Assembly: GCA_003194425.1 (NCBI GenBank)
Contig: PQXB01000001.1
Coordinates: 135,265-199,264, forward strand
Length of the DNA: 64,000 nt
DNA from: Candidatus Methanophagaceae archaeon
Lineage (GTDB): Archaea > Halobacteriota > Syntropharchaeia > Alkanophagales > Methanospirareceae
Direction: 5' to 3'
The notes under the pieces were generated by a model. That model was not told where the DNA came from and did no database searches. It worked only from the letters and a program-made list of their open reading frames with translations. The translations under genes were made by a program, and so were the position numbers. Of this stretch, positions 33,532-60,732 are shown piece by piece; the first letter of the stretch is position 1, and every line of letters begins with the position of its first letter.

Positions 33532-34359
33532 ATGACACGGGGCTACGTAACCGAAATGTTCAGCTCCTTCCAGGGTGAAGGACCCTACGCAGGCAGGAGG
33601 CAGGTCTTTCTTCGGTTTGCGGGCTGTCCCCTCTCTTGTTTTTACTGCGACACCGCCTACGCAAGAGAGCCCAGACCAAAGTTCTGCAACCTGCTCCGCC
33701 CTGACAAGAAGACCCGCAAAAGAAACCCGCTGTCCGCGAGCGAGGTGCTGGACTGCGTAAAAGCGCTGCTCTCTCCCGACCTGCACAGCGTCTGCTACAC
33801 CGGCGGCGAGCCGCTCACACCGTCTTCCGCGGGGTTCGTAAAAGAAATTGCAAACGCGGTAAAAGAGACGGGGCTAAGGAATTTTTTAGAGACGAGTGGG
33901 TGCTCGGCACGGGCGTTCGCGTCTTTAGCCGACTGCTTTGACTTCGCTTCGGTTGACATAAAACTGCGGGGTCACCAAGCGGTGCAGGGGGAAGACAGCT
34001 ACGAGGCGTTGTACAGGAACGAGCTTGAGTGCGTAAGAATCGCGGTTGAGCGGGGTGTAGAGACGGTGGTGAAGGTGGTAGTGCTAAAGGGCACGCCCGC
34101 GGCGGAAATCGAAGAAATCTGCAGAGACCTTTCGGGGTTTGAATTTGGGTTAGAGGAGAGAGGAAGGGGCAGGGAAAAGGGTAGGGGAAGGGGCAGGGAA
34201 AAGGGTAGGGTAAAGTTTGTGTTGCAGCCTGTTACTGCTCCGCGGTCGGGGGCAGTGCCGAGCACAGAGGAACTCTTTGAACTTTCCGAAGTGGCGGGGC
34301 GGTTCTTACGCGATGTTGCGGTGATTCCGCAGGTGCATAAATTTTTGGGAGTTTTATGA
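33532..34359 (+). CDS. queE: 7-carboxy-7-deazaguanine synthase (radical SAM) with a (GRGREKGR)-type repeat insertion
   Basis: FLRFAGCPLSCFYCDT radical-SAM cluster motif typical of QueE. 27-nt x2 repeat at ~34150-34215. Confidence 0.75.
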   Translation: MTRGYVTEMFSSFQGEGPYAGRRQVFLRFAGCPLSCFYCDTAYAREPRPKFCNLLRPDKKTRKRNPLSASEVLDCVKALLSPDLHSVCYTGGEPLTPSSAGFVKEIANAVKETGLRNFLETSGCSARAFASLADCFDFASVDIKLRGHQAVQGEDSYEALYRNELECVRIAVERGVETVVKVVVLKGTPAAEIEEICRDLSGFEFGLEERGRGREKGRGRGREKGRVKFVLQPVTAPRSGAVPSTEELFELSEVAGRFLRDVAVIPQVHKFLGVL

Positions 34360-34437
34360 AAAAACTTTTTTGCAAGCAAAAACCTTTACTAAAAAATTGC
34401 AAGCAAAAACCTTTACTAAAAAACTTTTCTTATTTTT

Positions 34438-39557: not shown

Positions 39558-39600
39558 CGGTCGAGTCCGGCGGTCGAGTCCGGCGGTCGAGTCCGGCGGA
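39558..39600. repeat. 13-nt tandem repeat x3.3 (cggtcgagtccgg) upstream of the nuclease gene
   Basis: Exact copies, self-complementary ends (ccgg...ccgg). Confidence 0.75.
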
Positions 39601-41831: not shown

Positions 41832-42089
41832 CAACTTCCTCACGCCGTCTGCCAACCCGTGAGCGTAATTTATGCAGCCGAAGGCGGTAAAGAAATCCCC
41901 TTTTTCAAGGTAGTATTTCGCGTCCTCAAAATATGCCTTCGCAAGGCTCAACACCTCTTCTCTTGCTCCTGCAGCACTCGCAGCACCTGCAGCACTCGCA
42001 GCACCTGCAGCACTCGCAGCACCAAGCGACAACGCTTCAAAAAGTGCGATGTCTTTCTTTATCCTACCCGCTTCTTCGTTCAACTTCAC
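41793..42089 (-). CDS. DUF357-like small archaeal protein with an (AASAAG)3 repeat
   Basis: FTAFGCINYAHGLAD motif. 18-nt x3 repeat at ~41965-42020. Convergent 39-nt overlap with the presenilin gene. Confidence 0.4.
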   Translation of the reverse strand: MKLNEEAGRIKKDIALFEALSLGAASAAGAASAAGAASAAGAREEVLSLAKAYFEDAKYYLEKGDFFTAFGCINYAHGLADGVRKLSSQPNDKPENRT

Positions 42090-43129
42090 GATCCTATTTT
42101 AAGTTGCCACGTCTTATTTTTCTTCCCATTCTTTTTTATAGCATCTTCCTCTTCCAGACCCTTAAACTCTAACAAGAATTCGCGGATCCGCCTCTCCGCC
42201 AATTTCACATATTCTTCGCCTGTCTCGTAGCCAACATAATGGCGTCGGGTTTTTATCGCCGCTATTCCCGTCTGCCCGCTCCCCGCGAAAGGGTCTAAAA
42301 CAACCTCGCCCTCGAAGGTGTAAAGTTGAATCAGCCTGTAAGGAAGTTCCACAGGGAACGGTGCTGGGTGTCCAACCCTACGAGCAGATTCCGCAGGGAA
42401 CGTCCAAACGCTTTTAGTAAACTCAAGAAACTCCTCCTTTGAGATTGTGCTTTTTCTTCTTCTTTTCTCGTTCTTGCTCTCTCCTCGGCTAAACCCGCTT
42501 TTAGAAAAGACCAAAATATATTCGTGAATGTCCCGCAGCGTGGGATTAGCAGCAGAAAGCCAGCTCCCCCACGCCGTTGAAGGGCTCGCACTCGCGGCTT
42601 TGTTCCAAATGATTTCCCCTCGCATCAAAAACCCTAAACCGAGCAGGTCCTCAAGCACAAAAGCGTGAAGAGGAATGTACGGCTTTCTTTCTAAATTCGC
42701 GATGTTTACGCAGGCTCTACCGCCGGGCACGAGCACCCTGAAGACCTCTTTCCAAACCGTTCTTAAAAAATTTCTGTATTCTTCAAGCGTTAAATTTTCG
42801 TCGTATTCTTTGCCCGCGTTGTAGGGCGGCGAAGTGACCATTAAATGAACGCTGTCATCTGGCAACTCGTCCATCTGTTCGCTCGATTTACAGAAGATTT
42901 TATCCAACAACTGCGGTGGAATGCGATTTTCCAGAAATTGCACTTTCTTTTCTTTTTCCCCTGGCAAACTTTCGTATAATTTGCTGGCATAAAACGCGGT
43001 GGAATTATGATTTATTCGACCGGGCGAGCCAAACGAGCTTGTTTGCGTCCCTCTTTTTCTTTGACTGTTTGTCATTGTATAATAAAGAGGATTTTGAAAA
43101 ACCCCCGAAAACGAGTGAAAATGCCACAA
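42086..43129 (-). CDS. Beta-class DNA methyltransferase (N4-cytosine or N6-adenine), apparently orphan
   Basis: Motif IV SPPY (VTSPPYNAG) precedes motif I DPFAGSGQTG. 4-nt overlap with the downstream DUF357 gene. Confidence 0.8.
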   Translation of the reverse strand: MWHFHSFSGVFQNPLYYTMTNSQRKRGTQTSSFGSPGRINHNSTAFYASKLYESLPGEKEKKVQFLENRIPPQLLDKIFCKSSEQMDELPDDSVHLMVTSPPYNAGKEYDENLTLEEYRNFLRTVWKEVFRVLVPGGRACVNIANLERKPYIPLHAFVLEDLLGLGFLMRGEIIWNKAASASPSTAWGSWLSAANPTLRDIHEYILVFSKSGFSRGESKNEKRRRKSTISKEEFLEFTKSVWTFPAESARRVGHPAPFPVELPYRLIQLYTFEGEVVLDPFAGSGQTGIAAIKTRRHYVGYETGEEYVKLAERRIREFLLEFKGLEEEDAIKKNGKKNKTWQLKIGS

Positions 43130-43276
43130 AAGTATATAAAGAAGAGAGTGTTACGAGGAGTAAATCAAAATCCTCTAAAGTAAAATATTTCGCAGTCTTG
43201 AAATTTCCAAAAGGGGATTTTTGACGAAGCGGTGAAGCGTAGCGAAACCAAATACGCTCTGTTATACGCTGTGTCT

Positions 43277-43465
43277 TTATTGGACTTTCTTAACTTGCTT
43301 CCCCAACAATTTGATATATTCAAGAAAACTTAACCCTTCGAATTCCGCTTCCTTAGCAATAATTTTCCTCGCGATATGAACTTGCTGTAAAGCCGGGTCG
43401 TCTGGGAACTCCGCTTCCACCGCTCTTCTTATTTCCTCAATATCCTTCTCTTTGACCTTGCTCAT
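43277..43465 (-). CDS. Small protein downstream of the PIN gene (possible antitoxin)
   Basis: 62 aa, 15-nt gap to the PIN gene. Confidence 0.3.
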   Translation of the reverse strand: MSKVKEKDIEEIRRAVEAEFPDDPALQQVHIARKIIAKEAEFEGLSFLEYIKLLGKQVKKVQ

Positions 43466-43480
43466 ATTTTCCCCCCCTTC

Positions 43481-43945
43481 CTATAACAATTCCGCAGGTG
43501 TCATAATCTCTATTTGCCTCAGGTTATTTAAAGTATTTACCCTCCTCACTCTGTCTCTCGTTTTTCTCCTTACAATGTGCCTAAAGTTCCAACTCAAAAG
43601 ACAGTCTATCTCGTTTATCGCTGCGATAGCAATATGGTAGGCATCTTCAGGGTAACCCGCGGGAACTGCGTCATAGCGAATATATTCGCTCGCTACCCTT
43701 TCAACGTCGTCAGTTAAAGCGAGGAGTGAAAATTGCGCGACTGCATCCTTCATTTTGCTTCGGAGTTCTATGTCTGGGGTTCGTTCAATCTCGGCAACCG
43801 TAATTTCGGAGATGAAAGTCTCAAAGTTACCTTTTTCCGCGAAAAAAGATTCTGTGAGCGATTTCCTCTCCGGATTCCGCTCATCAAACCGTGCTGAAAT
43901 TACTGAGGTGTCTAAATACACTTTCCCTCTTCTTCTCAGTTTCAC
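43481..43945 (-). CDS. PIN-domain (VapC-like) toxin; GTG start
   Basis: Acidic residues at PIN positions (VYLDTSVI, ...EIE..., ...EDAYHIAIAAINEID...). Confidence 0.55.
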   Translation of the reverse strand: MKLRRRGKVYLDTSVISARFDERNPERKSLTESFFAEKGNFETFISEITVAEIERTPDIELRSKMKDAVAQFSLLALTDDVERVASEYIRYDAVPAGYPEDAYHIAIAAINEIDCLLSWNFRHIVRRKTRDRVRRVNTLNNLRQIEIMTPAELL

Positions 43946-44014
43946 TTTCCTTTACCTCTTAGGCATTGCATAACTTCGGTATCCACTCGAGTTCACACAT
44001 CCTCAAAATAAGTT

Positions 44015-44323
44015 TTATAGTCCCGTTGCATATTTTACACTCCCTAAAAGGTACGGACGAAGTCCGGGTTTCACCGTCCCATAAATTACAAGGTCAACCC
44101 TGCATTTGAATAAATCCTCAAGGAAAAGTTTTAATTCAATGTAATTGTCAAACGTTTTCTTACTCTTCTCAAATTCCACCAGTATGTCTATGTCACTCCC
44201 TCTTCTTTGTTCATTTCTTACATACGAGCCAAATAATCCTATCTCTTTAACACCAAATCTTTTTATTATCGCTTTGCTCTCCTCGATTTTCTTCAATATT
44301 TCGTTTTCGTCCGCTGTTATCAT
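44015..44323 (-). CDS. Minimal nucleotidyltransferase (MNT) antitoxin-type protein
   Basis: LFGSYVRNEQRRGSDIDILVEF NTase motif. Confidence 0.75.
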   Translation of the reverse strand: MITADENEILKKIEESKAIIKRFGVKEIGLFGSYVRNEQRRGSDIDILVEFEKSKKTFDNYIELKLFLEDLFKCRVDLVIYGTVKPGLRPYLLGSVKYATGL

Positions 44324-44452
44324 TTCTTCTTCACCTCTTTGGCAGAGACGGGCATTTTATAGGGCAAAATGTCCAGAAGGACAAGCTACTTAAGTGAGCA
44401 TAGCGTAAACTTGTATTCTTATACTGTGCCACATCTCTTTATTAACCATAAC

Positions 44453-46285
44453 CTATGTGCGATCGATACACGTATATCTAAATTTCTTTTTTACATTCCA
44501 CACTTTCACTACTGCCCATGTTAAGGCAAGGAACCATGCACTTGGTGAGATTATCTTAGCAAGGATAGCTGAGATAATACACACAACAATAAAGAGCCCT
44601 ATTTCGCCACCCATTAAGAATTGTTTTTCTTTTTCGACCTTGGATTTACACATAGCAATTATTTCATTCTCCTTAATTTCATTCTCCTTATCCCTCTCCT
44701 TGTTTTTTACATCTGACTCAACAACACCTAACGCTTTTTTAATTTTGCCAACTTCTGTTAGACATTGATCTTCACGTTTTTTGTCTTCTGCTATATTAAA
44801 CACCTTGCTAAGTGATTCTAAACAATTTACTAATGTAATACTATCGCCGCATTGCTTAGCATAGCCACCAGCTACAAACAATCTTTTCTGAGCTAAATCC
44901 ATTCTACCTTTCCTTAGATAGCATAGCCCCGCAGCGTAGCTGGAAAGTCCAAGACAATAGGGGTCATAGGTTTTTCCAGAAAGCCATGAAGTCCAGAACA
45001 GAGGATCATTCCCCCTCCACTCCCACTCACCCGGAATCTTGGCAACCATCATGCTGAGGCACTCGATTACCTCCCTATGCCGTCCCATATTCATATACCG
45101 ATCTGCGGTTTTTAATAAGGATTCAAGTGCTTTTTCATACTCTTTTAGAACAATCAGCGCAAGCCCATGATTCTTTAGTGCCTTAGTAACAAGCCATGGA
45201 TCATCACTTCCACGGATGATCTTATCTGACTGTGCTGCAATAAAAGTAGCTTCCTCCTTTGATGGGTCAAGAAGAATTATTTCAGAAAAGAAGTTCTTCC
45301 ATGCCATTTCATTGATACCCGAAGCCCACCTGAGTAGGAATTTATTTTGGCGAGTTTTCATTTTATCTTCTTTACCCTGATCATATTTTTCGTCGGCGTC
45401 TTTATCTAAGAGTCTTGCAAAAATACTCTTTTGGTCCGCGCCTACTAATTTACAATTAGGGCATTCGCGACCAAAAGCTTTGATGTTACCTGTTAGGCTG
45501 ACCTCATTATTCCGCAGCACCCAATAAACACCCTTCGCCGTTTTGGCAGTGCTTAGGATTACTGGAAAAATATCATCGTCGTTGCCACTGTATCCTACAA
45601 TTAAAACGGTGTAGGATCTAAAGACGACACGAAGAAGGTCTGAAAGATCTTTTTTTAGATTAAGTCCTGCCAGTCTAAGAGTAAATATTATGCTTGCTTT
45701 TTCGTCTAAAGTGCCATGAAGCTTAACTACGGGCAGGTGTGACTCGTCTGACCCCTTATTATTCAAGGAGTTTAACAAGCCTTGACGCACAGAATTCACA
45801 TAAAGTTTGTATTTATTAAGGCTTACTTTCTCTAATGCTTTCTCTATATATGTATCAAAATTCGTTGTTAGGACAATTGGTATCTTATATTCACGAGCGA
45901 TATATGCGATATTGGAGTGGTTGCAATTGGGTATGCCCATATTCAAAATATCTATAAAACCAAAGAAATTCTCTCGAAGATTACTATGCAAAATTTGACA
46001 GAACAATTCAGGTTTTATTCTTTTTGTACGACAATTAATAAAACTGTGGAAGTCATCAAGTCCGCTGTGTGCACTTTTTGCGGAATCTATTACAAGATCC
46101 ATTAGCTCCTTCGAGAGTGGACAAGAGGAAGGAGGATCCTTAGAAATCCCCGCACCCACAAAGATAACAAGTTCATTCGACTTTGCTTTTTTAAGCTCTT
46201 GAACAGCACTCTCAAGATCAACCAACTCTCTTAATTCATTTTTTACCATATCTTGCCTTTGACAATTATCTTTTTCTTTAATCAT
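44453..46285 (-). CDS. SIR2_2-domain protein with TPR-like helical middle region and 1-2 C-terminal TM helices (candidate NADase effector)
   Basis: SIR2_2 motifs VIFVGAGIS, VLTTNFD, VVKLHGT. C-terminal IGLFIVVCIISAILAKIISPSAWFLALTWAVV. Confidence 0.7.
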   Translation of the reverse strand: MIKEKDNCQRQDMVKNELRELVDLESAVQELKKAKSNELVIFVGAGISKDPPSSCPLSKELMDLVIDSAKSAHSGLDDFHSFINCRTKRIKPELFCQILHSNLRENFFGFIDILNMGIPNCNHSNIAYIAREYKIPIVLTTNFDTYIEKALEKVSLNKYKLYVNSVRQGLLNSLNNKGSDESHLPVVKLHGTLDEKASIIFTLRLAGLNLKKDLSDLLRVVFRSYTVLIVGYSGNDDDIFPVILSTAKTAKGVYWVLRNNEVSLTGNIKAFGRECPNCKLVGADQKSIFARLLDKDADEKYDQGKEDKMKTRQNKFLLRWASGINEMAWKNFFSEIILLDPSKEEATFIAAQSDKIIRGSDDPWLVTKALKNHGLALIVLKEYEKALESLLKTADRYMNMGRHREVIECLSMMVAKIPGEWEWRGNDPLFWTSWLSGKTYDPYCLGLSSYAAGLCYLRKGRMDLAQKRLFVAGGYAKQCGDSITLVNCLESLSKVFNIAEDKKREDQCLTEVGKIKKALGVVESDVKNKERDKENEIKENEIIAMCKSKVEKEKQFLMGGEIGLFIVVCIISAILAKIISPSAWFLALTWAVVKVWNVKKKFRYTCIDRT

Positions 46286-47361
46286 AGATAGCCTCTATCG
46301 AATATAGCAGCAGTAGGAATTCTTTTACGCACTTCGGACAGAAGGATTTTTTCATCACGCTTTGACAGGGTCGAGGTATTGTATGCCCACCTAAGTCCGT
46401 TTTTTGAATATAAAACCAGAAGCCTGTCAGTTCCAGAAATAATGTTATGCCTTTCGCGTAGGGTTGCTTTCTCAATATCTGACCACCGCAAGCCAAATGG
46501 CCTGCCTAAACCGGAAATAAAAATTCCTTCATCAAGTAATGTTATCTTTTGTAAATGTACAATAATTGTTTGAAGAATAAGATAAAGGGAGGATAATCCC
46601 CCTAAAACGCCCAAGAGGATACTAATTAATCCTGTTTTTTCATACCTGAACCTGATATAAATCAGTAATAAGGCTGTTACAGCGGGGGAAATAGTCCAAA
46701 TAAATGACCGAATAAACGAACGCATAGTTGGTTTAAAAGTTTGACCCATAATCTTTGGTAGAGCAGGGGGTTGGTGACCTTTTATGTACTTTACTAATTC
46801 TCCTATGGTTGTGCCGTAAGGGAAACTTAGCATAAACAGAAACAGCGATAATTCGCCCAGTAGCTGACCCTCTAAGTTTACAAGGCTCCAAATAAAGAGA
46901 TAAAAAGATGAAGTGAGTAAGGCAATAATTGGAGCTCTTTTGTAGAGATGAAAGCCCATTAGTTCAAACATCAGGCTCATCTTATCTGTCCAATCTATAT
47001 TTTCAGTAAGAAAGATTCTCTCCATTTCGACACCCTTTTCAAGTTCAATCAATTGTGCTGCCCGAAGATTATATTCCTCATCCCTTAGCTTAATTCTCTG
47101 CGAAAATGTATCGAATGGATTAATAGAAACTCGTGTTGACCGGCCACAAATATAACCTATTGCAAAAGGAATTGCTACTGTTATTATTCCCAATGGATGA
47201 AAAGGTGCCAAAAGAAAAGAGATTATGATGGCTACTAAATGAGGAACTCCAGCACGCCTAATTCTAAATATTTTGAAAATGACCCAGAAGAATACAAAAC
47301 TTACGCACAAAGTGGTGCCTATGACATACAAAAGTGTCATGTTCTCGTTCATGGTAATCAT
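46282..47361 (-). CDS. Polytopic membrane protein with a C-terminal soluble (PH-like) domain, in operon with the SIR2 gene
   Basis: At least 6 predicted TM helices; 4-nt overlap with the SIR2 gene. Confidence 0.5.
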   Translation of the reverse strand: MITMNENMTLLYVIGTTLCVSFVFFWVIFKIFRIRRAGVPHLVAIIISFLLAPFHPLGIITVAIPFAIGYICGRSTRVSINPFDTFSQRIKLRDEEYNLRAAQLIELEKGVEMERIFLTENIDWTDKMSLMFELMGFHLYKRAPIIALLTSSFYLFIWSLVNLEGQLLGELSLFLFMLSFPYGTTIGELVKYIKGHQPPALPKIMGQTFKPTMRSFIRSFIWTISPAVTALLLIYIRFRYEKTGLISILLGVLGGLSSLYLILQTIIVHLQKITLLDEGIFISGLGRPFGLRWSDIEKATLRERHNIISGTDRLLVLYSKNGLRWAYNTSTLSKRDEKILLSEVRKRIPTAAIFDRGYL

Positions 47362-47367
47362 CTCCTT

Positions 47368-47853
47368 CTATTCTCTTTGTGCTTTGATAATACTATCGAG
47401 AATAATAGAGCAAATTATCCCTCCTGTATACCCTATACTTGGCGCAAGGAGAAAAAAGATAGTGTTGAATTTTAAAATGCCAATAGCCTCAAGCCATTCT
47501 TGGCCGATATCTTTGTTAATGAAGAATGATAATGCGGCAGAAAGAATAGCTATGTTAGCCATAACTATACAAAACCACCCAATACCAAAGAATTTTGCAG
47601 GTGTCAAGATATCAGAACCCATTGCTGAATAAGATAATACGGAAATACTTGAAAATCCGATTCCGAAGATAACGGCAATCACAGGATAAATCACCAACAA
47701 CATTTTCATTTTATTTTCGTACTCTCCGAGGATCTCCCATGAGTTGCTGATTGTACCTTGAAATATTTCCATTGCAATCCACAATGTTAAGTAGAAAAAG
47801 AACAAGTAGCCAAATATAAAGCCGAAGGTTGATGCTTTACTTATTTTTTGCAT
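47368..47853 (-). CDS. Four-TM membrane protein, hypothetical
   Basis: Hydrophobic throughout; 6-nt gap downstream and 13-nt overlap upstream within the operon. Confidence 0.45.
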   Translation of the reverse strand: MQKISKASTFGFIFGYLFFFYLTLWIAMEIFQGTISNSWEILGEYENKMKMLLVIYPVIAVIFGIGFSSISVLSYSAMGSDILTPAKFFGIGWFCIVMANIAILSAALSFFINKDIGQEWLEAIGILKFNTIFFLLAPSIGYTGGIICSIILDSIIKAQRE

Positions 47854-48677
47854 TCTGATTCATCTGCCTTTGAGCTTTTAATCTGTTTGATTTCATCCAG
47901 CATACTTTCTGTTAGTTTTATGTCTTCATATTTTCCTATTTCTCTGTCTATATAAAGACTACGTTCATATTTCTCTTTCGCCATCTCATATTTTCCCTGA
48001 ATATGCTCTATTTCGGCGAGCCTAAAGATAGCACCGCTTATGACAGAAAGTATTTCATGGTTGTTTGGTGACTTGCTGTTCAGTGATTCCGCAATCACAA
48101 GTGCCTTTTCTACTGCCCCGGCTGCTTTGTCTAAATACTGCTGCTGACGATACAGAAGCGACAACTGATAATAAACAGCTACAACGTTTAATTCATGGCA
48201 GATAGATTCCGCATCTGTTTCAGACTTACTCGTAAGACGCTTCTGAATTTCGAGAGCTTGGAGATATAAGAACTCCGCCTTTTTCAACCTATTATTATTC
48301 CGAAGCTCTTCAATGAATTTTTTGGATCTTGGATTGTGCCAGTTTCCGGTGTAAGTGGTCTCATGGAGAAACTTGGCACGGTTATAGAGACGCTGAGATT
48401 TCGGAGTAAGAAATCGAGAGATAAAAAAGACAATTAGTCCACACATAGGAAACGAGATGCTTTCCCAAGAATTGAGGGAGAATTCCAATTTACCGATTGA
48501 CTGCCACACCATCATTCCAATAAAGCAAAATAGAGCAAATGTTACTTTTTTGTTTTTCTGACCCTCCAATCCTAACCTTATCCAACCTTTCTTCCCAATT
48601 TCCCAACCAATCAAAGCATTTGCTATTAATCCCACTACAATAAAGCAATACAGATCGAAAATAAATTGTTGTGTCAT
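47841..48677 (-). CDS. Membrane-anchored TPR-repeat protein (3 N-terminal TM plus TPRs)
   Basis: N-terminal TM helices followed by TPR-like AEFLYLQALEIQKRL / AVYYQLSLLYRQQQYLDKA repeats. Confidence 0.5.
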   Translation of the reverse strand: MTQQFIFDLYCFIVVGLIANALIGWEIGKKGWIRLGLEGQKNKKVTFALFCFIGMMVWQSIGKLEFSLNSWESISFPMCGLIVFFISRFLTPKSQRLYNRAKFLHETTYTGNWHNPRSKKFIEELRNNNRLKKAEFLYLQALEIQKRLTSKSETDAESICHELNVVAVYYQLSLLYRQQQYLDKAAGAVEKALVIAESLNSKSPNNHEILSVISGAIFRLAEIEHIQGKYEMAKEKYERSLYIDREIGKYEDIKLTESMLDEIKQIKSSKADESECKK

Positions 48678-48716
48678 TTTTTTATGTTATTTCCAAACTT
48701 GAGCTCGCACACACTT

Positions 48717-50975
48717 TTATTTATCATCAGAACCCTTCTCTGTTACCAACCTCGGCACGAGCGTCGAGTACCGCCCCAACTGAATCCCGTATTTTTTGTT
48801 GTACTCTGCCATTTCCATCAGTTCGCCAGACCTGTGCCTCGCCCGTTTTATCCGCATTCCCTCAATCTCCCACCCGTGCTCCTCCTTCAACTTCCGCAGC
48901 AACTCCGCCCGCCGCATCACATGCAACTCCTGCTCGGACCGCACGAACAAGTGCCAGTCGTCTGAATATTCGCCAAAGAAATTTTTGTAAGCCTCGTTCT
49001 CCGCCTCCAGACTCGCAAGCCTGGGGTCTCGCAAGGCAAGCGGGCGGTGCAGCAGTTTCGCACTCATCGCGATCGCCTCCTCCTTCGTCTCCACCGGCAC
49101 GAGCATGTGCACTGGACACGGTTCGACCTCCTTCTTCTCACCCGTCACACCGTCGTACATCCACCACTTGCTCCTGTCGTTTTTGTCGCCCAGGAAGAAC
49201 CGCTTGAAGTTGCTTGAACACGAAGGTGAACACGAAGGTGAACACGAAGGTGAACACGAAGGACCGACGACGACAGGAATGCCCGACCTGACGAGACCCG
49301 ACGCAACCGCGAACATCGTCTCCGTCCACGCACCCCAAATTATCGCGACCACGGGCAGCCGAGCGTAGAGGTAGTCGGCAATCTGCGTCCAGTTCGCTTT
49401 CGGCACGTAGCCACTCCCAACCAACGCACCGCGGTAGACCGCAGCAGGAACGTGCGAAATCGCAGTGCAGCCCCCGAAATTCACCAACCCCTTCAGCACT
49501 CCAGCCGCGATGTACTGCTCGAACAAGAACTTCCGCCCCCCTTCCTCCTCGTCAAAATACTTCGCAACGTCCGCAGCAACGCAGCCCGAAACCGTGACAA
49601 GAGCGTTCCGCTCCAGAAAATACCTCGCAATTTCCGCTACTTCTTTCCCGTTCCCTGAACCCTCGCAGTCTCCGCGGTCTCCACAGCCCAGAATATTTAT
49701 CATTCCCGGCCCGTTCCCGCCTAAAATAATCCCGAAGGTCAGGTCCCGCCACTCCAACTCCGACATCGGACCCCGCCCAGCCCGCATAAGAAACTTGTCT
49801 TGCTTTATTTTACCTTTTTTCTTTGGTATTTTTTTCACCCCCACCACCAGCCGAACAGCGAGTTCGCCCGCCTTCTCTGGACCAGAAATTCGCACGCCCG
49901 GCAGGTCCTTCTCCAACACCTCGCTGACCAAATCCTGCACCGTCTTCGCTGACCTCTCCTCTAACTCCAAATCCAACCCGCAGGCGACCACCTTCGCACC
50001 CACCCGCTTCGCCTCCTCTAAAACATCAAGCTCAAAGCACAATTCTCCGCTGACCACGACCACATCGGGAATGCCTGCTCTGAAAACCTCCCTCGCCTTC
50101 ACCGCCGACGCGAGAACCTTTCCGCGTTTGTAAAATCTTGGAATGTCGTGCCCCACCGCACCGACGCCGCAAATTTCTACCGCCTCCTCCAATCCCGCTC
50201 CCGACCTTCTCAAATACTCAACCGCGAACCACGCCGGCAAGAAATCGCTGCCAAGAAAGACCACAACCGGCTTGCTCGTGTCAGCCGCACCGAGACCAAC
50301 TTCGGTCTCGACCGGCGGGAAGTCAGTGTACTCGGTCGCAGGACGCGTGCCTGCGTTGTAGAACCCGAAGCAGCACATTTTTAGCGTCTCTGCAATTTCC
50401 ATCGCGAGAAATGTAAGCGAGCCCGCGTGCAACGCCTTCTCTTCAAATTCCTCCGCACTCTCTCCGCCCTGTTCTTGAGCGAGAAGCAATTTTGAGAGCT
50501 GCGATTCCGCGTAGCACAACGCCCTCTCCGCCTCGCCCAAATCTTTCGTGTAAAACCCGGTCAGCAGTGAGGTGTTCATTGAGGGGTAGGTAACTGACTT
50601 CCCAATCTCAAGTTCCTTCTCTCGCCCAAACCGTTCTACCGAAAAATCAAGCAGACGCCTCGCAACCCCCAACTGCCGAGACAGCCCTTTACAAGCCTCC
50701 TGCAAACTCTGCCTCGCTTGCTTCGCCTGCTCTTCCTTTTTCAGCTTTTCTTCCTTTTTCAGATTTAGTTCGGCGTTCGCGTAGACCGCGGGGTACCTGT
50801 TCAGAAGCACGCTGTCCCACTCTTCGATGTCCGCAGCGTCTGCAAAAATGTTCAACCTCGGCTTCCACTGTTCCAGCTGTCCTCGCTCGCCCATTTCCCT
50901 GAGTATTTCGCGGGCGATTCGTTCCTTCTCTTTCTCTTTCTCCTTCTCTTCCCCCTTCCCCTTCTCTTCCTCCAC
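48717..50975 (-). CDS. Large (752 aa) conserved hypothetical protein with KE-rich N-terminus and a (PSCS)4 repeat
   Basis: Long GC-rich ORF with coding-like composition. 12-nt x4 repeat at ~49207-49262. No family confidently recognised. Confidence 0.5.
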   Translation of the reverse strand: MEEEKGKGEEKEKEKEKERIAREILREMGERGQLEQWKPRLNIFADAADIEEWDSVLLNRYPAVYANAELNLKKEEKLKKEEQAKQARQSLQEACKGLSRQLGVARRLLDFSVERFGREKELEIGKSVTYPSMNTSLLTGFYTKDLGEAERALCYAESQLSKLLLAQEQGGESAEEFEEKALHAGSLTFLAMEIAETLKMCCFGFYNAGTRPATEYTDFPPVETEVGLGAADTSKPVVVFLGSDFLPAWFAVEYLRRSGAGLEEAVEICGVGAVGHDIPRFYKRGKVLASAVKAREVFRAGIPDVVVVSGELCFELDVLEEAKRVGAKVVACGLDLELEERSAKTVQDLVSEVLEKDLPGVRISGPEKAGELAVRLVVGVKKIPKKKGKIKQDKFLMRAGRGPMSELEWRDLTFGIILGGNGPGMINILGCGDRGDCEGSGNGKEVAEIARYFLERNALVTVSGCVAADVAKYFDEEEGGRKFLFEQYIAAGVLKGLVNFGGCTAISHVPAAVYRGALVGSGYVPKANWTQIADYLYARLPVVAIIWGAWTETMFAVASGLVRSGIPVVVGPSCSPSCSPSCSPSCSSNFKRFFLGDKNDRSKWWMYDGVTGEKKEVEPCPVHMLVPVETKEEAIAMSAKLLHRPLALRDPRLASLEAENEAYKNFFGEYSDDWHLFVRSEQELHVMRRAELLRKLKEEHGWEIEGMRIKRARHRSGELMEMAEYNKKYGIQLGRYSTLVPRLVTEKGSDDK

Positions 50976-51285: not shown

Positions 51286-52560
51286 ATGAAAAAAGAAGAG
51301 GTTCTCTTCTCTGCGGAGGAGTGCGAATTCAGAGCCGAGTTGCGAGATTTTCTTGAGCGCGAGGACGCGAAGGGGGCAGAGCGGGAAATATTTGAGCAGG
51401 ATTTTTATCCGCGGGAACTTTACGAGCGGTTGGGGAAAGCGGGTTTCTTGGCGCCGGTGCTGCCCGCGGAGTTCGGCGGTAAGGAAGAGGAAGGCGGGAG
51501 TAAAAGAGGAGGGAGTGAGGGAGGGGGTAAATTGGTGTACGAGGCGGTGTTGGCGGAGGAGCTCGGTGCTGCCTGCGTGCCGCTTGCCTGGATTCACTCA
51601 ACCTCCTCCTACGCCTACGCGACGATTTTGAGGTACGGGAGCGAGGAGCAGAAGAGGCGGTTCTTGCCCGCGATGAAACGGGGCGAGAAGGTCGGTGCTG
51701 TCGCGATAACCGAGCCAGAGGCGGGGAGCGACGTAATGCGGATTCAGACGAGGGCGGAGTTGCGAGCGAGAGGCGGTGAATTTCTGTTAAGCGGCGAAAA
51801 GCGAAACATCACAAACGGGAGCCAAGCAGACTTGCTTTTGGTCTGGGCGGTGACGAACCCCGAGGTTGACCCTGCGCGGGGGCTGAGCGTTTTTATCGTG
51901 GAGCCTGGTGAAGGTGGAGGACCTGGTGAAGGTGGAGGAGAAGGGTTTGAAGTAGTGGAGGATTTCAAGTTGTTAGGCGGGTTTCCGGGGACTGTAAATT
52001 CTCGCCTGCGGTTTGACGAGTTGAGCGTGCCGAGGGGGAACTTGCTCGGCGAAGAGAGCGGGGAGAACGCGGGAGCGAGGATTTTGTTCGACGAGCTCAC
52101 GGTTGAGCGGGTCTTGTACGCGGCGATGCTGGTCGGCGAGGCGAGACCTGTGCTCGAACTCGCAGCGGACTACTCGGCAGAGCGGGAGCAGTTCGGAACG
52201 CAAATAAGCAGGTTCGAGGCGGTGAGCTTCAAAATCGCAGACGCAGCTGCAAAGTTAGAGGCTGCAAAGTTGATGATTTTTTACACTGCGAGGTTGCTCG
52301 ACGCGGACGCGGGCTTCAGTGCAGAGAAGGAGTCAGCAATCTCGAAACTGCTCGCTTCCGAGGCGTTCTACGAAGTCGCTCACAGCACCCTCCAAATTCT
52401 CGGCAGCAGAGGGGTCTCCGACGAGTACCCTGCTGAGTGGGCGTTCAGAATGGCGAGGCTCTCAATGATTCCCGCAGGGACGAACGAGATTATGCGGTTC
52501 ATCGTGCAGCGCGAGATTTACAAGGAGCGCAAGGAGCGTAAGCGTAAGACAAAAACATGA
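51286..52560 (+). CDS. Acyl-CoA dehydrogenase (second copy) with Gly/Glu-rich insertions
   Basis: ACAD domain motifs ([11 protein letters not shown]). 21-nt x2 repeat at ~51898-51945. Confidence 0.8.
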
Positions 52561-53421
52561 ATAAAACAGAAATAGGGTCTGCAACTGCGAAGGGAGGATT
52601 TGTAAATGAAAAGAGTATTTGCAAGAAGTTTAACAGTTGGAAAAAGGATAAAGAGGCTCAAATTTGGCTCAGGATTATGGGATATAAAGTAGAAAAGATT
52701 GATTCTGTAGAAGCAATTCAAATTCCAACCAGAATTAAGAAGAGTGAAATAGAAAAATTTGGGATAAGCGAAGAGGATTTTGAGGGTTAGCGAAGAGGAT
52801 TTTGAGGGTTTGATGCGATTCAAGAAAGCCGACGCTCAGATAAGAATTGTCATTACTATCGGCGAGATTTTGAAGGTAGAGAATTTGTCTTTAAAGAAGG
52901 CTAATTCTGACGCAGATTATAATCAGGTGGATAAGCGGAGGGTTGATTCGTATCAAAAGATGTGGAGTTTTGACGACGAAATAGCCTACTGGTTAAAGCT
53001 TTTCACGGGTGAGAACAATCCTAAATCGTTTGCTAAACTCGTGGGTGAAGTTGAATTGAGAGACAAAAGGAGGTTATTTTTTGATGAAATGCCTGAGGAG
53101 ATTTGGACTAAAATTATAACATTTTTTGAAGAAAATAGGATAATTGTTGTTAGCGATATTTTAAAGGGGCGAGGCGGACTTTCAGCCAACTGGATGCTGG
53201 TCACGAGGTACAACAAAAATGAGGAGACTACTACTTGGACACTCAAAGATATTAACACCGTTATGAATTTCTTTGGTGGGGGGGAGGTAAAAATATCGCC
53301 GAGAGGAAGTTTGTATTTAGGTAAAATCACAATGCAGAGAAAAGGCGGAACTCCAGACCCTACAAAACTACAGTTCAAGATAAAACCCTGTCAGTTGTTT
53401 AGCCTGGGGGAACGACAATGA
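52557..53421 (+). pseudogene. Type II restriction endonuclease-like gene disrupted by a 22-bp tandem duplication (frameshift)
   Basis: ORFs 52557-52790 and 52780-53421 lie in different frames. Exact duplication agcgaagaggattttgagggtt x2 at 52767-52810. Removing one copy restores ...ISEEDFEGLMRFKK... The gene is followed with 4-nt overlap by an MTase. Confidence 0.55.
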
Positions 53422-54224
53422 AAGGAATGAAAATGGAAGTAGACAAAGTGTATTTAGGCGACTGCGTAAAGATTATGAAGACTTTACCAAATAAATCTGT
53501 AGATTTAGTCTTTGCAGACCCGCCGTTCAACATTGGGCTAAAATACGATGTTTATAACGATAACCTTTCGTATGAAAAATATTACAAGTGGTCTGAAGAG
53601 TGGGTAAAAGAGGCTTGCAGGCTACTTAAAAACAGTGGGGCAATTTATGTCGCGATCGGAGACGAATTCGCAGCAGAGCTAAACATAATTCTAAAACGAA
53701 GAGGCTTCTATTTCAGAAACTGGATCGTGTGGCACTACACCTTCGGTCAAAATCAGCGGAAGAAATTTACCCGCGCACACACTCACATTTTATATTTCAC
53801 CAAAGACAAAGCACGATTTACATTTAACGACAAGCACATTCGCGTGCCCTCGGCAAGGCAACTCGTCTACAAAGACAAGCGAGCAAACCCGCTTGGAAAG
53901 ATTCCCGACGATGTCTGGCAGTTTTCGAGAATTTGCGGAACGTTCAAGGAGCGTCTCGGAAGACACCCTTGCCAAATGCCAGAATCCTTACTTGAGCGAA
54001 TAATAAGCGTCAGTTCCAACGAGGGCGACACGGTCTTAGACCCTTTCGGCGGGACAGGGACAACAGCAGCAGTCGCGAAGAAATTGAAGAGACATTTCAT
54101 CACGATGGAAATATCCGAAGAATATTACGACATCATCTTGAGAAGGTTGAATTTAAGAAGAGTGAAGAGTGTGTCAGAGGACGAGGAAGAGGAGCAGAGG
54201 ACTTTATTTGCGGTTTTAAGATAA
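53418..54224 (+). CDS. Beta-class DNA methyltransferase (R-M system partner)
   Basis: Motif IV DPPF near the N-terminus (LVFADPPFNIG), motif I DPFGGTGTT near the C-terminus. Confidence 0.8.
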   Translation: MKGMKMEVDKVYLGDCVKIMKTLPNKSVDLVFADPPFNIGLKYDVYNDNLSYEKYYKWSEEWVKEACRLLKNSGAIYVAIGDEFAAELNIILKRRGFYFRNWIVWHYTFGQNQRKKFTRAHTHILYFTKDKARFTFNDKHIRVPSARQLVYKDKRANPLGKIPDDVWQFSRICGTFKERLGRHPCQMPESLLERIISVSSNEGDTVLDPFGGTGTTAAVAKKLKRHFITMEISEEYYDIILRRLNLRRVKSVSEDEEEEQRTLFAVLR

Positions 54225-59139: not shown

Positions 59140-60732
59140 CTACTTCTTCTCCCTTCTCCGCTGTCCGAGCAAGAAGTAGCCCACGACCCCGAGCAGCCCC
59201 GCCGAGAACAGCACCACCGTCGGCAACTCCGGAACCGGCGCACACGGCACTGGACCAGACTTGTAGCCACTGAAGTCCACTTCCCCTTTTCCCGCATTCT
59301 CGTCGTTGTCGTAAATGCTTGCATCTATTTTCGCCGCGTTTGTCGTGCCCCAGTAGTTGTTCTTCGCCGTTACTGCGTCTGACTGGTCGTTGTAGAAGTT
59401 CCACTCGTACCCCTCGCTCGTTCCGTTGTAGTTCCCGTTCACTAAAATGTTGTTCTGCGCGATTGTGTTCCCTGTGCTTCCGCCTGATAAGTGGAACCCT
59501 GCCTGCTTGTTGGCTTGCACCCTGTTGCACGAAATGTTGTTGCCGTCCGTGTTCCAGAGCCGGATGCCTTGCTTGTTGTTCTCGTTCGCGGTGTTGCCGG
59601 TCAGAGTGTTGTAGTTCGAATAATCCAGAAAGATGCCGTCCCAGTTGTTGTAGTTAGCGGTGTTGCTGGTAAGGGTGTTGTTGCTCGAAGAATCCAGCTC
59701 GATGCCGTCGTCGTTGTTGTAGTTAGCGGTGTTGCTGGTAAGGGTGTTGTTGCTCGAAGAATTCAGCCAGATGCCGTCGTCGTTGTTGTAGTTAGCGGTG
59801 TTGCCGGTCAGAGTGTTGTAGTTCGAATAATCCAGCAGGATGCCGTCCCAGTTGTTCTCGTTCGCGGTGTTGCTGGTAAGGGTGTTGTAGTTCGAATAAT
59901 CCAGCAGGATGCCGTCGTCGTTGTTGTAGTTAGCGGAGTTGCTGGTAAGGGTGTTGTAGTTCGAATAATCCAGCCAGATGCCGTCCCAGTCGTTCTGGTT
60001 AGCAGTGTTGCTGGTAAGAGTGTTGTTGCTCGAATAATCCAGCCAGATGCCGACCCAGTTGTTGTAGTTAGCGGTGTTGCTGGTAAGGGTGTTGTTGCTC
60101 GAAGAATCCAGCAGGATGCCGTCGTCGTTGTTGTAGTTAGCGGTGTTGCTGGTAAGGGTGTTGTTGCTCGAATAATCCAGCTCGATGCCCCAGTCGTTCT
60201 GGTTAGCAGTGTTGTTCGTTAGCTCGTTGTTGCTTGAATCCTGCAGGTAGATGCCGAACCAGCTGTTTTTCGAGCAGTTGTTCTCAGAGATCTTGCAGTG
60301 CTGCACGCCGTTGAGGGTAATCCCTGCTATCCAGCCACCACTTGTCGCTCCGGTCGCCGTGAACCCTGAGATGTTCACCCAGTCCGCGGTCACTTCAAAG
60401 ACGTCGTCGCTTGAACTTGCCGCGGTCACTGTCACCTTGTCCTTGCCTTCGCCCTCTAGCGTGAGGTGTGCTGTCCCCACGTTCACGTTCTCGTTGTAAC
60501 TCCCGTTGTAAACAAAGACGGTGTCGCCGCTGGTTGCTGCGTTCACTGCGTTCTGAATTGTTGCGTAGTCGCACCCTATTGCGCAGACGGTGTAAGTCGC
60601 TGCGTTCGCTGTTCCCACAACTACCGCGGCGACTGCGCAAAGGGCAAGCGTAAAGGCAAAAAAGAAACCCATTGCAGACGCTGCCACCGCGGTATTTTCC
60701 TTCTTTCCTAATCCGTTTTTTCCTTTTCGCAT
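59140..60732 (-). CDS. Secreted right-handed beta-helix (NosD/PbH1-like) repeat protein with PEL-CTERM-like sorting signal
   Basis: Signal peptide; about twelve 22-aa repeats (LTSNTANYNNDDGILLDYSNYNT); C-terminus PVPELPTVVLFSAGLLGVVGYFLLGQRRREKK. Confidence 0.7.
   Translation of the reverse strand: MRKGKNGLGKKENTAVAASAMGFFFAFTLALCAVAAVVVGTANAATYTVCAIGCDYATIQNAVNAATSGDTVFVYNGSYNENVNVGTAHLTLEGEGKDKVTVTAASSSDDVFEVTADWVNISGFTATGATSGGWIAGITLNGVQHCKISENNCSKNSWFGIYLQDSSNNELTNNTANQNDWGIELDYSSNNTLTSNTANYNNDDGILLDSSSNNTLTSNTANYNNWVGIWLDYSSNNTLTSNTANQNDWDGIWLDYSNYNTLTSNSANYNNDDGILLDYSNYNTLTSNTANENNWDGILLDYSNYNTLTGNTANYNNDDGIWLNSSSNNTLTSNTANYNNDDGIELDSSSNNTLTSNTANYNNWDGIFLDYSNYNTLTGNTANENNKQGIRLWNTDGNNISCNRVQANKQAGFHLSGGSTGNTIAQNNILVNGNYNGTSEGYEWNFYNDQSDAVTAKNNYWGTTNAAKIDASIYDNDENAGKGEVDFSGYKSGPVPCAPVPELPTVVLFSAGLLGVVGYFLLGQRRREKK
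59560..60240. repeat. About 10 copies of a 66-bp tandem repeat (coding, in frame) in the beta-helix gene
   Basis: Repeated gttgttgtagttagcggtgttgctggtaagggtgttgttgctcgaagaatccag... units with point variants. Confidence 0.8.

Follow-up and report, generated by a model that had tools for sequence, protein, structure and literature searches.

The locus described here lies on the forward strand of the window, by which we mean the whole 64,000-nucleotide stretch of Candidatus Methanophagaceae DNA that was analysed, which belongs to a metagenome-assembled genome (MAG) of ANME-1 (Methanophagales), a methane oxidiser. The locus comprises a disrupted gene for a putative Type IIP restriction endonuclease of the R.HinP1I family, the whole pseudogene occupying 52557..53421, followed by an intact gene for a predicted beta-class N6/N4 DNA methyltransferase of 268 aa (53418..54224). 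The endonuclease gene is split between two open reading frames. The N-terminal fragment, of 77 aa (52557..52790), is recorded at NCBI as hypothetical protein PXF51033.1, and the C-terminal fragment (52780..53421), which has 213 aa in the list of open reading frames when read from a TTG codon and 202 aa when read from the ATG at 52814, is PXF51034.1, annotated by NCBI as a type II restriction endonuclease. Just upstream, at 52407..52547 on the same strand, lies the 3' end of an acyl-CoA dehydrogenase gene, which marks the left edge of a low-GC island; GC content drops from 55-58% to 41% across the restriction-modification (R-M) cassette.

The disruption is an exact tandem duplication. The 22-bp unit AGCGAAGAGGATTTTGAGGGTT is present twice, head-to-tail, at 52767-52788 and 52789-52810, with zero mismatches when the two strings are compared, and TRF reports a period of 22, 2.0 copies, 100% matches and a score of 88 for 52767-52810. 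Neither flank prolongs the repeat, whose two copies occupy exactly 44 bp. Copy 1 corresponds to codons 71-78 of the ancestral gene; copy 2 is the derived, extra 22 bp and brings a +1 frameshift, with a TAG stop (52788-52790) spanning the junction. A preliminary description of this DNA had reported the duplication, had placed the resulting shift of frame between the reading frames at 52557-52790 and 52780-53421, and had predicted that removing one copy would give a single reading frame of about 281 aa. All of this was borne out, the reconstructed gene being 843 nt long, a multiple of 3, and encoding 280 aa plus a stop. As it stands in the window, the endonuclease frame is lost after codon 77, and no uninterrupted reading frame for a complete enzyme is present. 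The N-terminal fragment has the invariant E18 and is without D85 and K106, which the C-terminal fragment keeps along with S104 and the recognition residues Q116, K119 and K255. Because the frameshift parts E18 from D85...S104-x-K106 and from the DNA-recognition residues, no full-length enzyme would be made, and endonuclease activity has probably been lost. By chance, an exact 22+22 tandem would be expected about 4e-9 times in 64 kb of random sequence (64000 x 4^-22). Exact tandem arrays with periods of 9-40 bp number 37 in the window, compared with 0-1 in block shuffles, and the 22-bp duplication is therefore one instance of a mutation class that is common in this genome; short tandem duplication is, indeed, a dominant class of mutation there. 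The spontaneous mutations of a thermophilic archaeon are known to include tandem duplications as a class of their own (PMC7785828).

Judged by its sequence, the reconstructed 280-aa protein is unambiguously an R.HinP1I-family enzyme. It matches Pfam PF11463 with E = 2.2e-53 (181.3 bits, cut-off 25), PADLOC REase_II at 1.7e-66 and PDB 1ynm (1ynm_A) with E = 5.7e-53, query residues 1-55 aligning with 1-55 and 83-275 with 60-246, so that the similarity to restriction endonucleases on which the preliminary description depended was found in Pfam, PDB and PADLOC alike. Homology to R.HinP1I (Haemophilus influenzae P1; G^CGC; PDB 1YNM, 2FKC) extends over essentially the full length, and the two proteins have in common the N-terminal E18 and an Asp and a Lys, presumably catalytic, that are spaced as D-X18-x-x-K. 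The catalytic residues of HinP1I, which we take to be Asp62 and Gln81-x-Lys83 in a motif SDX18QXK, differ from those here at one position: D85 and K106 are spaced as in HinP1I and are invariant in 64/64 sequences, whereas the middle residue, also invariant, is Ser104 in place of Gln (ADX18SXK). More broadly, E18, D85, S104, K106, Q116, K119 and K255 are invariant in 63/64 sequences, the remaining one being gapped at Q116 and K119. A second difference from R.HinP1I is a helical insert specific to this subfamily, about 23 aa long (aa 56-82), which falls between the two blocks aligned with 1ynm and just before the catalytic Asp; the duplication sits there. The aromatic Y114 occupies the position of HinP1I F91, presumably the intercalating Phe. 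From its likeness to HinP1I, we would expect the reconstructed enzyme to be a monomeric PD-(D/E)XK nuclease that nicks the two strands one after the other. A phenylalanine of HinP1I intercalates (PMC3025569). Residues Q116, K119 and K255 align with HinP1I Q93, K96 and K223, which contact GCGC (PMC7026639), and suggest that the enzyme would have been specific for GCGC. GCGC is depleted in the window (O/E 0.28), which we rejected as evidence on specificity because most 4-bp palindromes are depleted there. An AlphaFold2 model of the reconstructed endonuclease, built from an alignment of 14 sequences, had a mean pLDDT of 50.6 and was too poor to support a fold search. The endonuclease has more than 2000 homologues, all with one copy of the 22-bp unit and about 278 aa long.

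The methyltransferase matches Pfam PF01555 at 1.7e-64, PADLOC MTase_II at 1.3e-74 and the CcrM, RsrI and MboIIA structures in the PDB at about 1e-31 to 1e-33. It carries motif IV (DPPF) at aa 34 and motif I (DPFGGTGTT) at aa 208, the core FGGTG of the latter, at aa 210, being C-terminal to motif IV. The DPPF motif is classically adenine-like. The GCGC target predicted from the endonuclease's contacts contains no adenine, which sits oddly with that motif, and the D-versus-S rule is not absolute. R.HinP1I is partnered differently, M.HinP1I being, as we understand it, a C5-cytosine methyltransferase, whereas the enzyme here is predicted to be a beta-class amino-methyltransferase and its endonuclease gene is broken. 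The order IV ... TRD ... I defines the beta class (PMC2890505), and by the PF01555 match and the position of motif IV ahead of motif I the protein is classified as a beta-class methyltransferase. Its ATG (53418-53420) is overlapped by the TGA of the endonuclease gene (53419-53421), giving the 4-nt ATGA (53418-53421) that the preliminary description had noted as typical of a Type II endonuclease-methyltransferase pair. The arrangement, endonuclease first and methyltransferase overlapping it, is a conserved ancestral operon: a methyltransferase more than 55% identical to this one lies no more than 60 nt downstream at 56/79 metagenome loci and 40/80 genome loci, and the methyltransferases directly downstream in homologous loci are 70-82% identical. 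No record matched the methyltransferase protein of the window exactly, and close variants were reached via the endonuclease fragments. Among alleles, the methyltransferase has 14 synonymous and 17 nonsynonymous polymorphisms (pN/pS about 0.32), a pattern that shows purifying selection on the encoded protein. Its only knock-out is a 291-bp in-frame deletion that removes motif I in L004, on a background in which the endonuclease is already dead. Methyltransferase activity has probably been retained, as that of an orphan.

We compared the window with 12 other contigs (L001-L012) carrying the same gene, which are 97-99.4% identical to it over the aligned stretch with indels counted and differ from it by 3-24 bases each. 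The identical two-copy state was found in L002 (ENA ERZ27227322), L003 (Logan SRR6664617), L009 (ENA ERZ27248172) and another ENA contig (P0123 and P0134), and the MAG record at NCBI (PXF51033.1 and PXF51034.1) has it too. At least five independent assemblies thus carry the two-copy allele, which is found on three or more haplotypes, so that the duplication is real and established. There is also evidence of recombination, since the allele fails the four-gamete test against nearby SNPs. L010 does not cover the duplication site, which 12 contigs span. The second copy is missing from L001, L004-L008, L011 and L012, all of which span the site, just as it is from the homologues at large.

Every one-copy contig carries another disabling lesion. 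Together with the 22-bp duplication at 52767-52810 (window, L002, L003, L009, P0123), the alleles hold six: a change of the start codon from ATG to ATA at 52559 (L001, L012), delA at 52677 (L004, L005, L012), a TGG>TAA nonsense change at 52964-5 that truncates the protein at W129 (W129*; L011), delA at 53076 (L007, L008), and a 14-bp tandem duplication after 53108 (L006, L010, L012). All six were verified at the DNA level, and outside L012 each is the sole lesion of its haplotype. L012, with three lesions, may have arisen by recombination or by chimeric assembly, and the ATG>ATA change may lower translation without abolishing it. W129* is known from a single contig, as L013 proved to be the same contig as L011, and some of the ENA and Logan metagenome assemblies possibly derive from the same reads, which makes the number of independent observations per lesion uncertain. 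None of the 13 contigs has an intact (ON) allele, and no intact endonuclease at more than 90% identity was present in a collection of 15 billion proteins, where the next match is 82-83% identical. Disabling lesions and ordinary SNP sites number 6 and 4 in the endonuclease gene and 1 and 31 in the methyltransferase gene (Fisher p = 2.5e-4). SNP diversity apart from the lesions is lower in the endonuclease (4 sites) than in the methyltransferase (31), although a pseudogene long dead would be expected to be the more diverse of the two; the observed pattern fits recent parallel knock-outs together with recombination in the methyltransferase gene, and is not fully explained by them. In other lineages of the family, the endonuclease is disrupted at 5/76 and 15/75 loci. 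A scan of JGI metagenomes yielded one ANME-1 allele (L013) and 79 other loci that were used as controls, while a scan of species-representative genomes found no ANME-1 genome with the cassette, and hence no empty site or intact ANME-1 relative.

Two of the contigs, L006 and L011, have a second copy of the acyl-CoA dehydrogenase 3' end, 92% identical to the first, just after the methyltransferase, so that in them a direct repeat of about 144 bp flanks the low-GC cassette on both sides. This resembles the R-M units that Nobusato, Kobayashi and colleagues are said to have found inserted with long target duplication in Helicobacter pylori. Unlike those units, the cassette of the window has lost the right-hand repeat copy, and as no empty site was recovered, insertion by the same mechanism is only a possibility. 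A scan of viral contigs found no relatives of the cassette, so no viral vector is indicated. A second R-M system nearby shows the same outcome, endonuclease lost and methyltransferase kept: the window lacks its ThaI-like endonuclease, which is intact in L006 and interrupted by a nonsense codon in L009, and retains its SPPY methyltransferase (42086-43129). Defence loci of ANME-1 are known hotspots of structural variation (PMC13385816).

We consider it highly probable that the endonuclease was lost repeatedly at this locus while the methyltransferase was retained, through selection against the active enzyme and not through a dedicated switch. On this account, horizontal transfer would have brought a low-GC Type II R-M cassette into one ANME-1 (Methanophagales) lineage, its point of insertion being the 3' end of the acyl-CoA dehydrogenase gene. 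In the window strain, a spontaneous 22-bp duplication of the replication-slippage class would have shifted the endonuclease frame after codon 77, and the same gene would have been knocked out at least five more times independently in close relatives, the methyltransferase staying intact and constrained and acting as an orphan. As a cell with active endonuclease would not survive losing the methyltransferase, point lesions that inactivate the endonuclease are the viable route, and the methyltransferase would decay only once its partner is dead, as it has done in one strain. From the parallel knock-outs and the lack of an intact copy, which together point to selection against the active endonuclease, we infer that selection was the cause of its loss. 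The five other lesions in related strains likewise argue for ordinary gene decay over a genetic switch. The reading of the locus as a Type II R-M pair whose endonuclease was inactivated by the 22-bp duplication is supported by the family assignments and the frameshift. Of the claim that this is a recently killed pseudogene beside an orphan methyltransferase, the pseudogene and the orphan stand and the recency needs qualifying, because the allele is established, being on at least three haplotypes with signs of recombination, even though overall divergence is about 1% or less.

The other possibility raised in the preliminary description, a reversible phase-variation switch in which slippage or recombination toggles the 22-bp unit between one and two copies and so turns restriction on and off, was not supported, and we think it very unlikely. 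A perfect tandem duplication can in principle excise precisely, such duplications arise very often in this genome, one-copy and two-copy states both occur among near-identical strains, and the four-gamete failure could also stem from recurrent gain and loss. However, neither the 13 contigs nor the protein collection contains an ON state, each one-copy allele being otherwise disabled; the copy number is only ever 1 or 2 and never 3 or more; the repeat is at this site in 0 of more than 2000 homologues; and contigs cross the site unbroken in each sample, with no hint of mixture within a sample. Moreover, the unit is a complex 22-mer inside conserved coding sequence, where known phase-variable R-M genes have simple-sequence tracts such as poly(G) or (GA)n (PMC9465063). 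A looser form of reversibility, to which we give a similarly low chance, is that the broken alleles constitute a population reservoir from which active enzyme is regenerated, either by precise excision of the 22-bp or 14-bp duplication or by homologous recombination between alleles with lesions at different positions. Since each lesion lies in a gene that is otherwise whole, recombination between any pair of alleles could restore an undamaged copy, and an archaeon would then possess a contingency system for defence that works through duplication and recombination. Recombination at the locus is visible as four-gamete failures, and the turnover of tandem duplications in this genome is unusually active.

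Random accumulation of endonuclease lesions in a cassette that is no longer useful, with no selection for loss, is the alternative to which we give most weight, and it too is unlikely. Disruption of the endonuclease is fairly common in other lineages (5/76 and 15/75 loci, the disruptions lying at scattered positions), so relaxed selection alone could contribute; the three lesions of L012 are what would be expected of an old pseudogene; and ANME-1 defence loci are structurally variable (PMC13385816). Against this, five haplotypes have exactly one lesion apiece, which implies that each lesion arose on an intact background, the 6 disabling lesions to 4 SNP sites in 843 bp of the endonuclease gene are far from the 1 to 31 of the methyltransferase gene (p = 2.5e-4), and the methyltransferase is still under purifying selection. 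It is more improbable still that the gene continues to function, whether as a split enzyme (77 + 202/213 aa) or by a programmed +1 frameshift in the overlap at 52762-52790, which would give a full-length protein with an insertion of 7-8 residues in the subfamily-specific helical segment. That segment is absent from HinP1I, so an insertion within it might be tolerated, and a GAGGG Shine-Dalgarno-like sequence precedes the ATG at 52814, but no recognisable slippery site and no split homologue were found, and other strains are truncated at W129 or around codons 166-180, losing K255 and the recognition domain, which makes loss of function the population-wide pattern. An artefact of sequencing or assembly, such that the organism has no second copy, we regard as the least credible explanation of all. 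MAGs can be locally misassembled at repeats, but the same duplication is present in at least five assemblies made with different pipelines (NCBI MAG, MEGAHIT k141 in ENA, Logan) and with different linked SNPs, so the error that the preliminary description had allowed for does not account for it.

Inactivation is a common fate of restriction genes, and repeated loss of the endonuclease under selection, our preferred explanation, leaves current understanding of R-M biology unchanged. What the locus offers is a natural experiment, in which an uncultured, slow-growing, species-level ANME-1 lineage has had one endonuclease knocked out six ways and its methyltransferase kept. The six knock-outs, together with the same fate of the second R-M system, suggest that active restriction is costly or disfavoured in this lineage, and the locus shows R-M decay proceeding in the order to be expected, the endonuclease going first and the methyltransferase only afterwards. 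The NCBI record, in which the pseudogene status is unannotated, would be better read as an orphan methyltransferase beside a dead endonuclease.

As in phase-variable R-M genes, a change in repeat copy number here causes a frameshift that turns the gene off. In known phase-variable systems the tract is a homopolymer or a short simple-sequence repeat that exists in many lengths, and populations contain ON as well as OFF states (PMC9465063), whereas this locus has a complex 22-mer in one or two copies only, no simple-sequence tract with length variants, and OFF alleles without an ON allele. The closer likeness is to orphan methyltransferases left by decayed R-M systems, in which the endonuclease has a frameshift or nonsense mutation, the cognate methyltransferase is intact and the state varies between strains; the locus fits that description, with a predicted methyltransferase that is intact and constrained (1 disabling lesion) beside a disrupted endonuclease (6). 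Strain-variable R-M pseudogenes form a wider pattern in Helicobacter, Neisseria and Mycoplasma. Those of Mycoplasma agalactiae are a described case (PMC9465063). What sets the present locus apart from known orphan methyltransferases is that six independent knock-outs of one gene occur in a single shallow, uncultured archaeal lineage, and that two of the six are tandem duplications of 14-22 bp and not homopolymer slips.

In the window, the endonuclease gene of a Type II restriction-modification (R-M) pair is interrupted by an exact tandem duplication. The 22-bp unit, AGCGAAGAGGATTTTGAGGGTT, occurs twice, head-to-tail, at 52767-52810 (TRF: period 22, 2.0 copies, 100% matches, score 88), and the repeat is not prolonged by the adjoining bases. 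String identity and ORF calls agree here with the preliminary description, which had placed a frame shift between the ORFs 52557-52790 and 52780-53421. The first encodes the N-terminal 77 aa and the second, in the +1 frame, 213 aa of the C-terminal part. NCBI holds the 77-aa fragment as the hypothetical protein PXF51033.1 and the 213-aa fragment as the type II restriction endonuclease PXF51034.1, both belonging to a Candidatus Methanophagaceae/Methanophagales (ANME-1) MAG with a 1.19-Mb contig. Removal of one copy gives, as had been proposed, a single ORF that ends in TGA and shares 4 nt (ATGA) with the start of the methyltransferase ORF (53418-54224, 268 aa); its length is 843 nt or 280 aa, and not the ~281 aa first estimated. 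The endonuclease ATG at 52557 overlaps the stop of the upstream acyl-CoA dehydrogenase gene in the same ATGA style. GC content is 41% in the cassette against 55-58% in the neighbouring genes on either side, which marks it as a horizontally acquired island.

The endonuclease similarity expected in the preliminary description is strong: for the reconstructed protein, the match to Pfam R-HINP1I (PF11463) scores 181 bits (E = 2.2e-53), that to a PADLOC Type II endonuclease model has E = 1.7e-66, and that to HinP1I, whose structure is solved (1ynm), E = 5.7e-53. Because the HinP1I alignment splits into two blocks (residues 1-55 to 1-55, and 83-275 to 60-246), about 23 residues (56-82) are additional here, directly ahead of the catalytic Asp, and the 22-bp duplication, at codons 71-78, falls within this segment. 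The methyltransferase matches PF01555 (N6/N4 methyltransferase; 1.7e-64), and its nearest solved relatives are CcrM, M.RsrI and M.MboIIA. Of its motifs, IV (DPPF, aa 34) comes ahead of I (DPFGGTGTT, aa 208), which is the order of the beta class (PMC2890505) to which it had been assigned.

The chief addition of our analysis is the six-fold parallel inactivation of one endonuclease. The 90%-identity clusters of both fragments included proteins of odd length, and their contigs were fetched and aligned to the one-copy reference. With indels counted, these allele contigs share 97-99.4% identity with the reference where aligned (3-24 base differences per contig), and their near-identical copies of the gene carry six distinct disabling lesions: an ATG>ATA start codon (52559; L001, L012), a deleted A in codon 41 (52677; L004, which is ANME-1 ex4572_4, L005, L012), the 22-bp duplication (52767-52810; the window, L002, L003, L009, P0123), TGG>TAA at codon 129 (L011), a deleted A at about codon 166 (53076; L007, L008) and a 14-bp tandem duplication, TAAAATTATAACAT, after 53108 (L006, L010, L012). 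Where the start codon is lost, the upstream gene still has its stop, as TAA, and there is no other in-frame start ahead of M41. All haplotypes but L012 carry exactly one lesion, with wild-type sequence at the five remaining sites, which means that every lesion arose on an intact gene. L012 (Logan SRR21545387) has the equivalents of the 52559, 52677 and 53108 lesions on one contig; dead alleles may have recombined naturally to give it, or strains living together may have been assembled into a chimera. L001 is the sole whole-gene one-copy contig free of frameshifts and nonsense codons, and its start codon is lost. No intact endonuclease of >90% identity was found in a collection of 15 billion proteins, in which the next match is 82-83% identical. 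A killed endonuclease leaving an orphan methyltransferase, one reading put forward in the preliminary description, is supported by the frameshifted endonuclease, the intact methyltransferase and the lack of an intact endonuclease allele among those found.

The two genes differ in the changes they have accumulated. The endonuclease has 6 disabling lesions and 4 ordinary SNP sites, whereas the methyltransferase on the same contigs (the METHYLTRANSFERASE contrast) has a single clearly disabling lesion, and of its 31 polymorphic sites 14 are synonymous and 17 nonsynonymous, with a crude pN/pS of ~0.32 (Fisher p = 2.5e-4 between the genes). That lesion, a 291-bp in-frame deletion (53873-54163) removing the SAM-binding motif I, is found in ANME-1 ex4572_4 (L004 5212/5213) on an already frameshifted endonuclease background, so both genes would be dead in this strain. 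The contrast is the pattern expected if selection acts against an active endonuclease and the methyltransferase cannot be lost first. Such loss-order logic is established R-M "addiction" reasoning, and we infer that the same order applies to this cassette. Ordinary SNP diversity is lower in the endonuclease than in the methyltransferase, probably through recombination that imported blocks into the 3' half of the latter, where linked SNPs form a cluster at 54035-54211.

The preliminary description also proposed that the 22-bp unit could be a reversible, phase-variable switch of restriction. This is not supported, since no ON allele occurs among the alleles found, the copy number is one or two and never any other, and the unit has no simple-sequence character, whereas genuine phase-variable R-M genes rely on poly(G) or (GA)n tracts (PMC9465063). 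Moreover, at least three haplotypes bear the two-copy allele, the duplication fails the four-gamete test against SNPs 53441, 53459, 53588 and 53604, and the 53279 C variant is common to P0123 and L001. The allele has thus become established and undergoes recombination; it is no transient state. Four gametes could also arise if a copy were repeatedly gained or lost, so reversibility is unsupported and improbable rather than refuted, and we retain the killed endonuclease as our reading. Assembly error had also been raised as a possible source of the duplication. The same two-copy state is present in L002, L003, L009 and the ENA contig P0123/P0134, and an artefact is ruled out because these come from several assemblers and differ in linked SNPs.

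Exact tandem arrays with periods of 9-40 bp number 37 in the window against 0-1 in shuffles (examples lie at 3599-3648, 13668-13703, 34162-34210, 34370-34423, 39558-39599, 41968-42023, 49215-49262 and 51904-51939), and 32 of the 37 have a period that is a multiple of 3 and stay in frame inside ORFs. These counts show short tandem duplication to be a very active mutation class here, with out-of-frame events purged by selection from functional genes; the 22-bp and 14-bp endonuclease duplications are tolerated or favoured exceptions. At the pyrE gene of Sulfolobus acidocaldarius, large indels (deletions and tandem duplications) make up ~10-15% of spontaneous mutations (PMC7785828). The in-frame arrays include SPSC x4 in a prismane-like gene and 18 bp x2 within the acyl-CoA dehydrogenase gene. 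A large array at 59563-60239 has ~9.9 copies of 69 bp (84-89% matches; alternatively 207 bp x 3.1) and probably encodes a repetitive protein. The 9-bp repeat CAAGGAGCG at 52521-52542 encodes the KERKERK tail of the acyl-CoA dehydrogenase and differs between strains: 3 bp (AGC/AAC) may be inserted after 52531, so that the protein has 424 or 425 aa.

Homologues of the endonuclease number more than 2000, the close relatives being ~278 aa long and 72-83% identical. All close homologues contain EEDFE[DG]LMRFKKADAQ once, so the extra segment is a subfamily trait and the second 22-bp copy a derived lesion. When 64 uninterrupted sequences were aligned, E18, D85, S104, K106 and K255 were invariant, as were Q116 and K119 save in one gapped sequence. 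Of 79 metagenome loci, 56 have a partner methyltransferase (>55% identical, <=60 nt downstream) on the 3' side of the endonuclease, as do 40 of 80 species-representative genomes, from many bacterial and archaeal phyla. Endonuclease followed by overlapping methyltransferase is therefore the conserved operon, and the family is widely transferred. Among other lineages, the endonuclease gene is unbroken at 71/76 complete metagenome loci and 60/75 genome loci, the disruptions being nonsense or frameshift changes at scattered positions. Since disrupted loci also occur there, decay of this endonuclease is a recurrent, ordinary fate; the ANME-1 lineage is distinctive only in that all copies seen are broken, and each break is different.

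HinP1I reads GCGC via K96, Q93 and K223 (PMC7026639). These residues align with the conserved K119, Q116 and K255 here, and a GCGC core is therefore our best guess at the specificity. Of 101 partner methyltransferases (loci L014-L172 of other lineages), 100 have DPPFNI as motif IV. Motifs of the DPPF type are classically adenine-type, but GCGC contains no adenine. The D-versus-S rule for the methylated base is not absolute, and either the methyltransferase may act on N4 of cytosine despite its D-type motif, or the site of this subfamily may differ from GCGC and have an adenine. Palindromes of 4 bp are strongly avoided in the window, where GCGC has the third lowest observed/expected ratio of all 256 4-mers (0.28; GGCC 0.07, CTAG 0.15, CATG 0.31, ACGT 0.36, GATC 0.45). 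Such avoidance would fit a long history of contact with many restriction systems, and is unspecific to this cassette.

R-M and toxin-antitoxin genes are reported to be structural-variation hotspots with high pN/pS in ANME-1 (PMC13385816, a recent study that mentions neither this endonuclease gene nor pseudogenes or frameshifts). A second R-M system nearby met the same fate as the HinP1I-like cassette. Its 347-aa beta-class methyltransferase (SPPY motif; 42086-43129, minus strand) is kept in the window. Of its ThaI-like (CGCG-type, PF15514) endonuclease, L006 has an intact copy (252-884, 210 aa) and L009 (215-1850) one that stops early, at codon 128. The window has no copy and carries instead a low-GC 5.6-kb segment (43077-48732) with a PIN protein, a nucleotidyltransferase (PADLOC PDC-S09), a 610-aa SIR2-like protein, membrane proteins and a TPR protein.

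Three independent Logan contigs (L001, L003, L008) all begin at window position 52504, inside the acyl-CoA dehydrogenase 3' segment, which is duplicated in some strains; the shared break is consistent with an assembly-graph branch at this repeat. In L006 (6523-6665) and L011 (2641-2856), the cassette lies between direct repeats of ~144 bp that are 92% identical and derive from the 3' end of the acyl-CoA dehydrogenase gene (window 52407-52547). The second copy encodes an alternative C-terminus ending in KERKQERKVKGKRNKLF before its stop, and the genes downstream are unlike those of the window. The right-hand copy is absent in the window, L002, L004 and L010, where AcnX is downstream. R-M insertion with long target duplication is a known type of event, which the bracketing in L006 and L011 resembles, and the presence of the repeat copy there and its absence in the other four suggest that our cassette arrived by such an insertion and was then rearranged.
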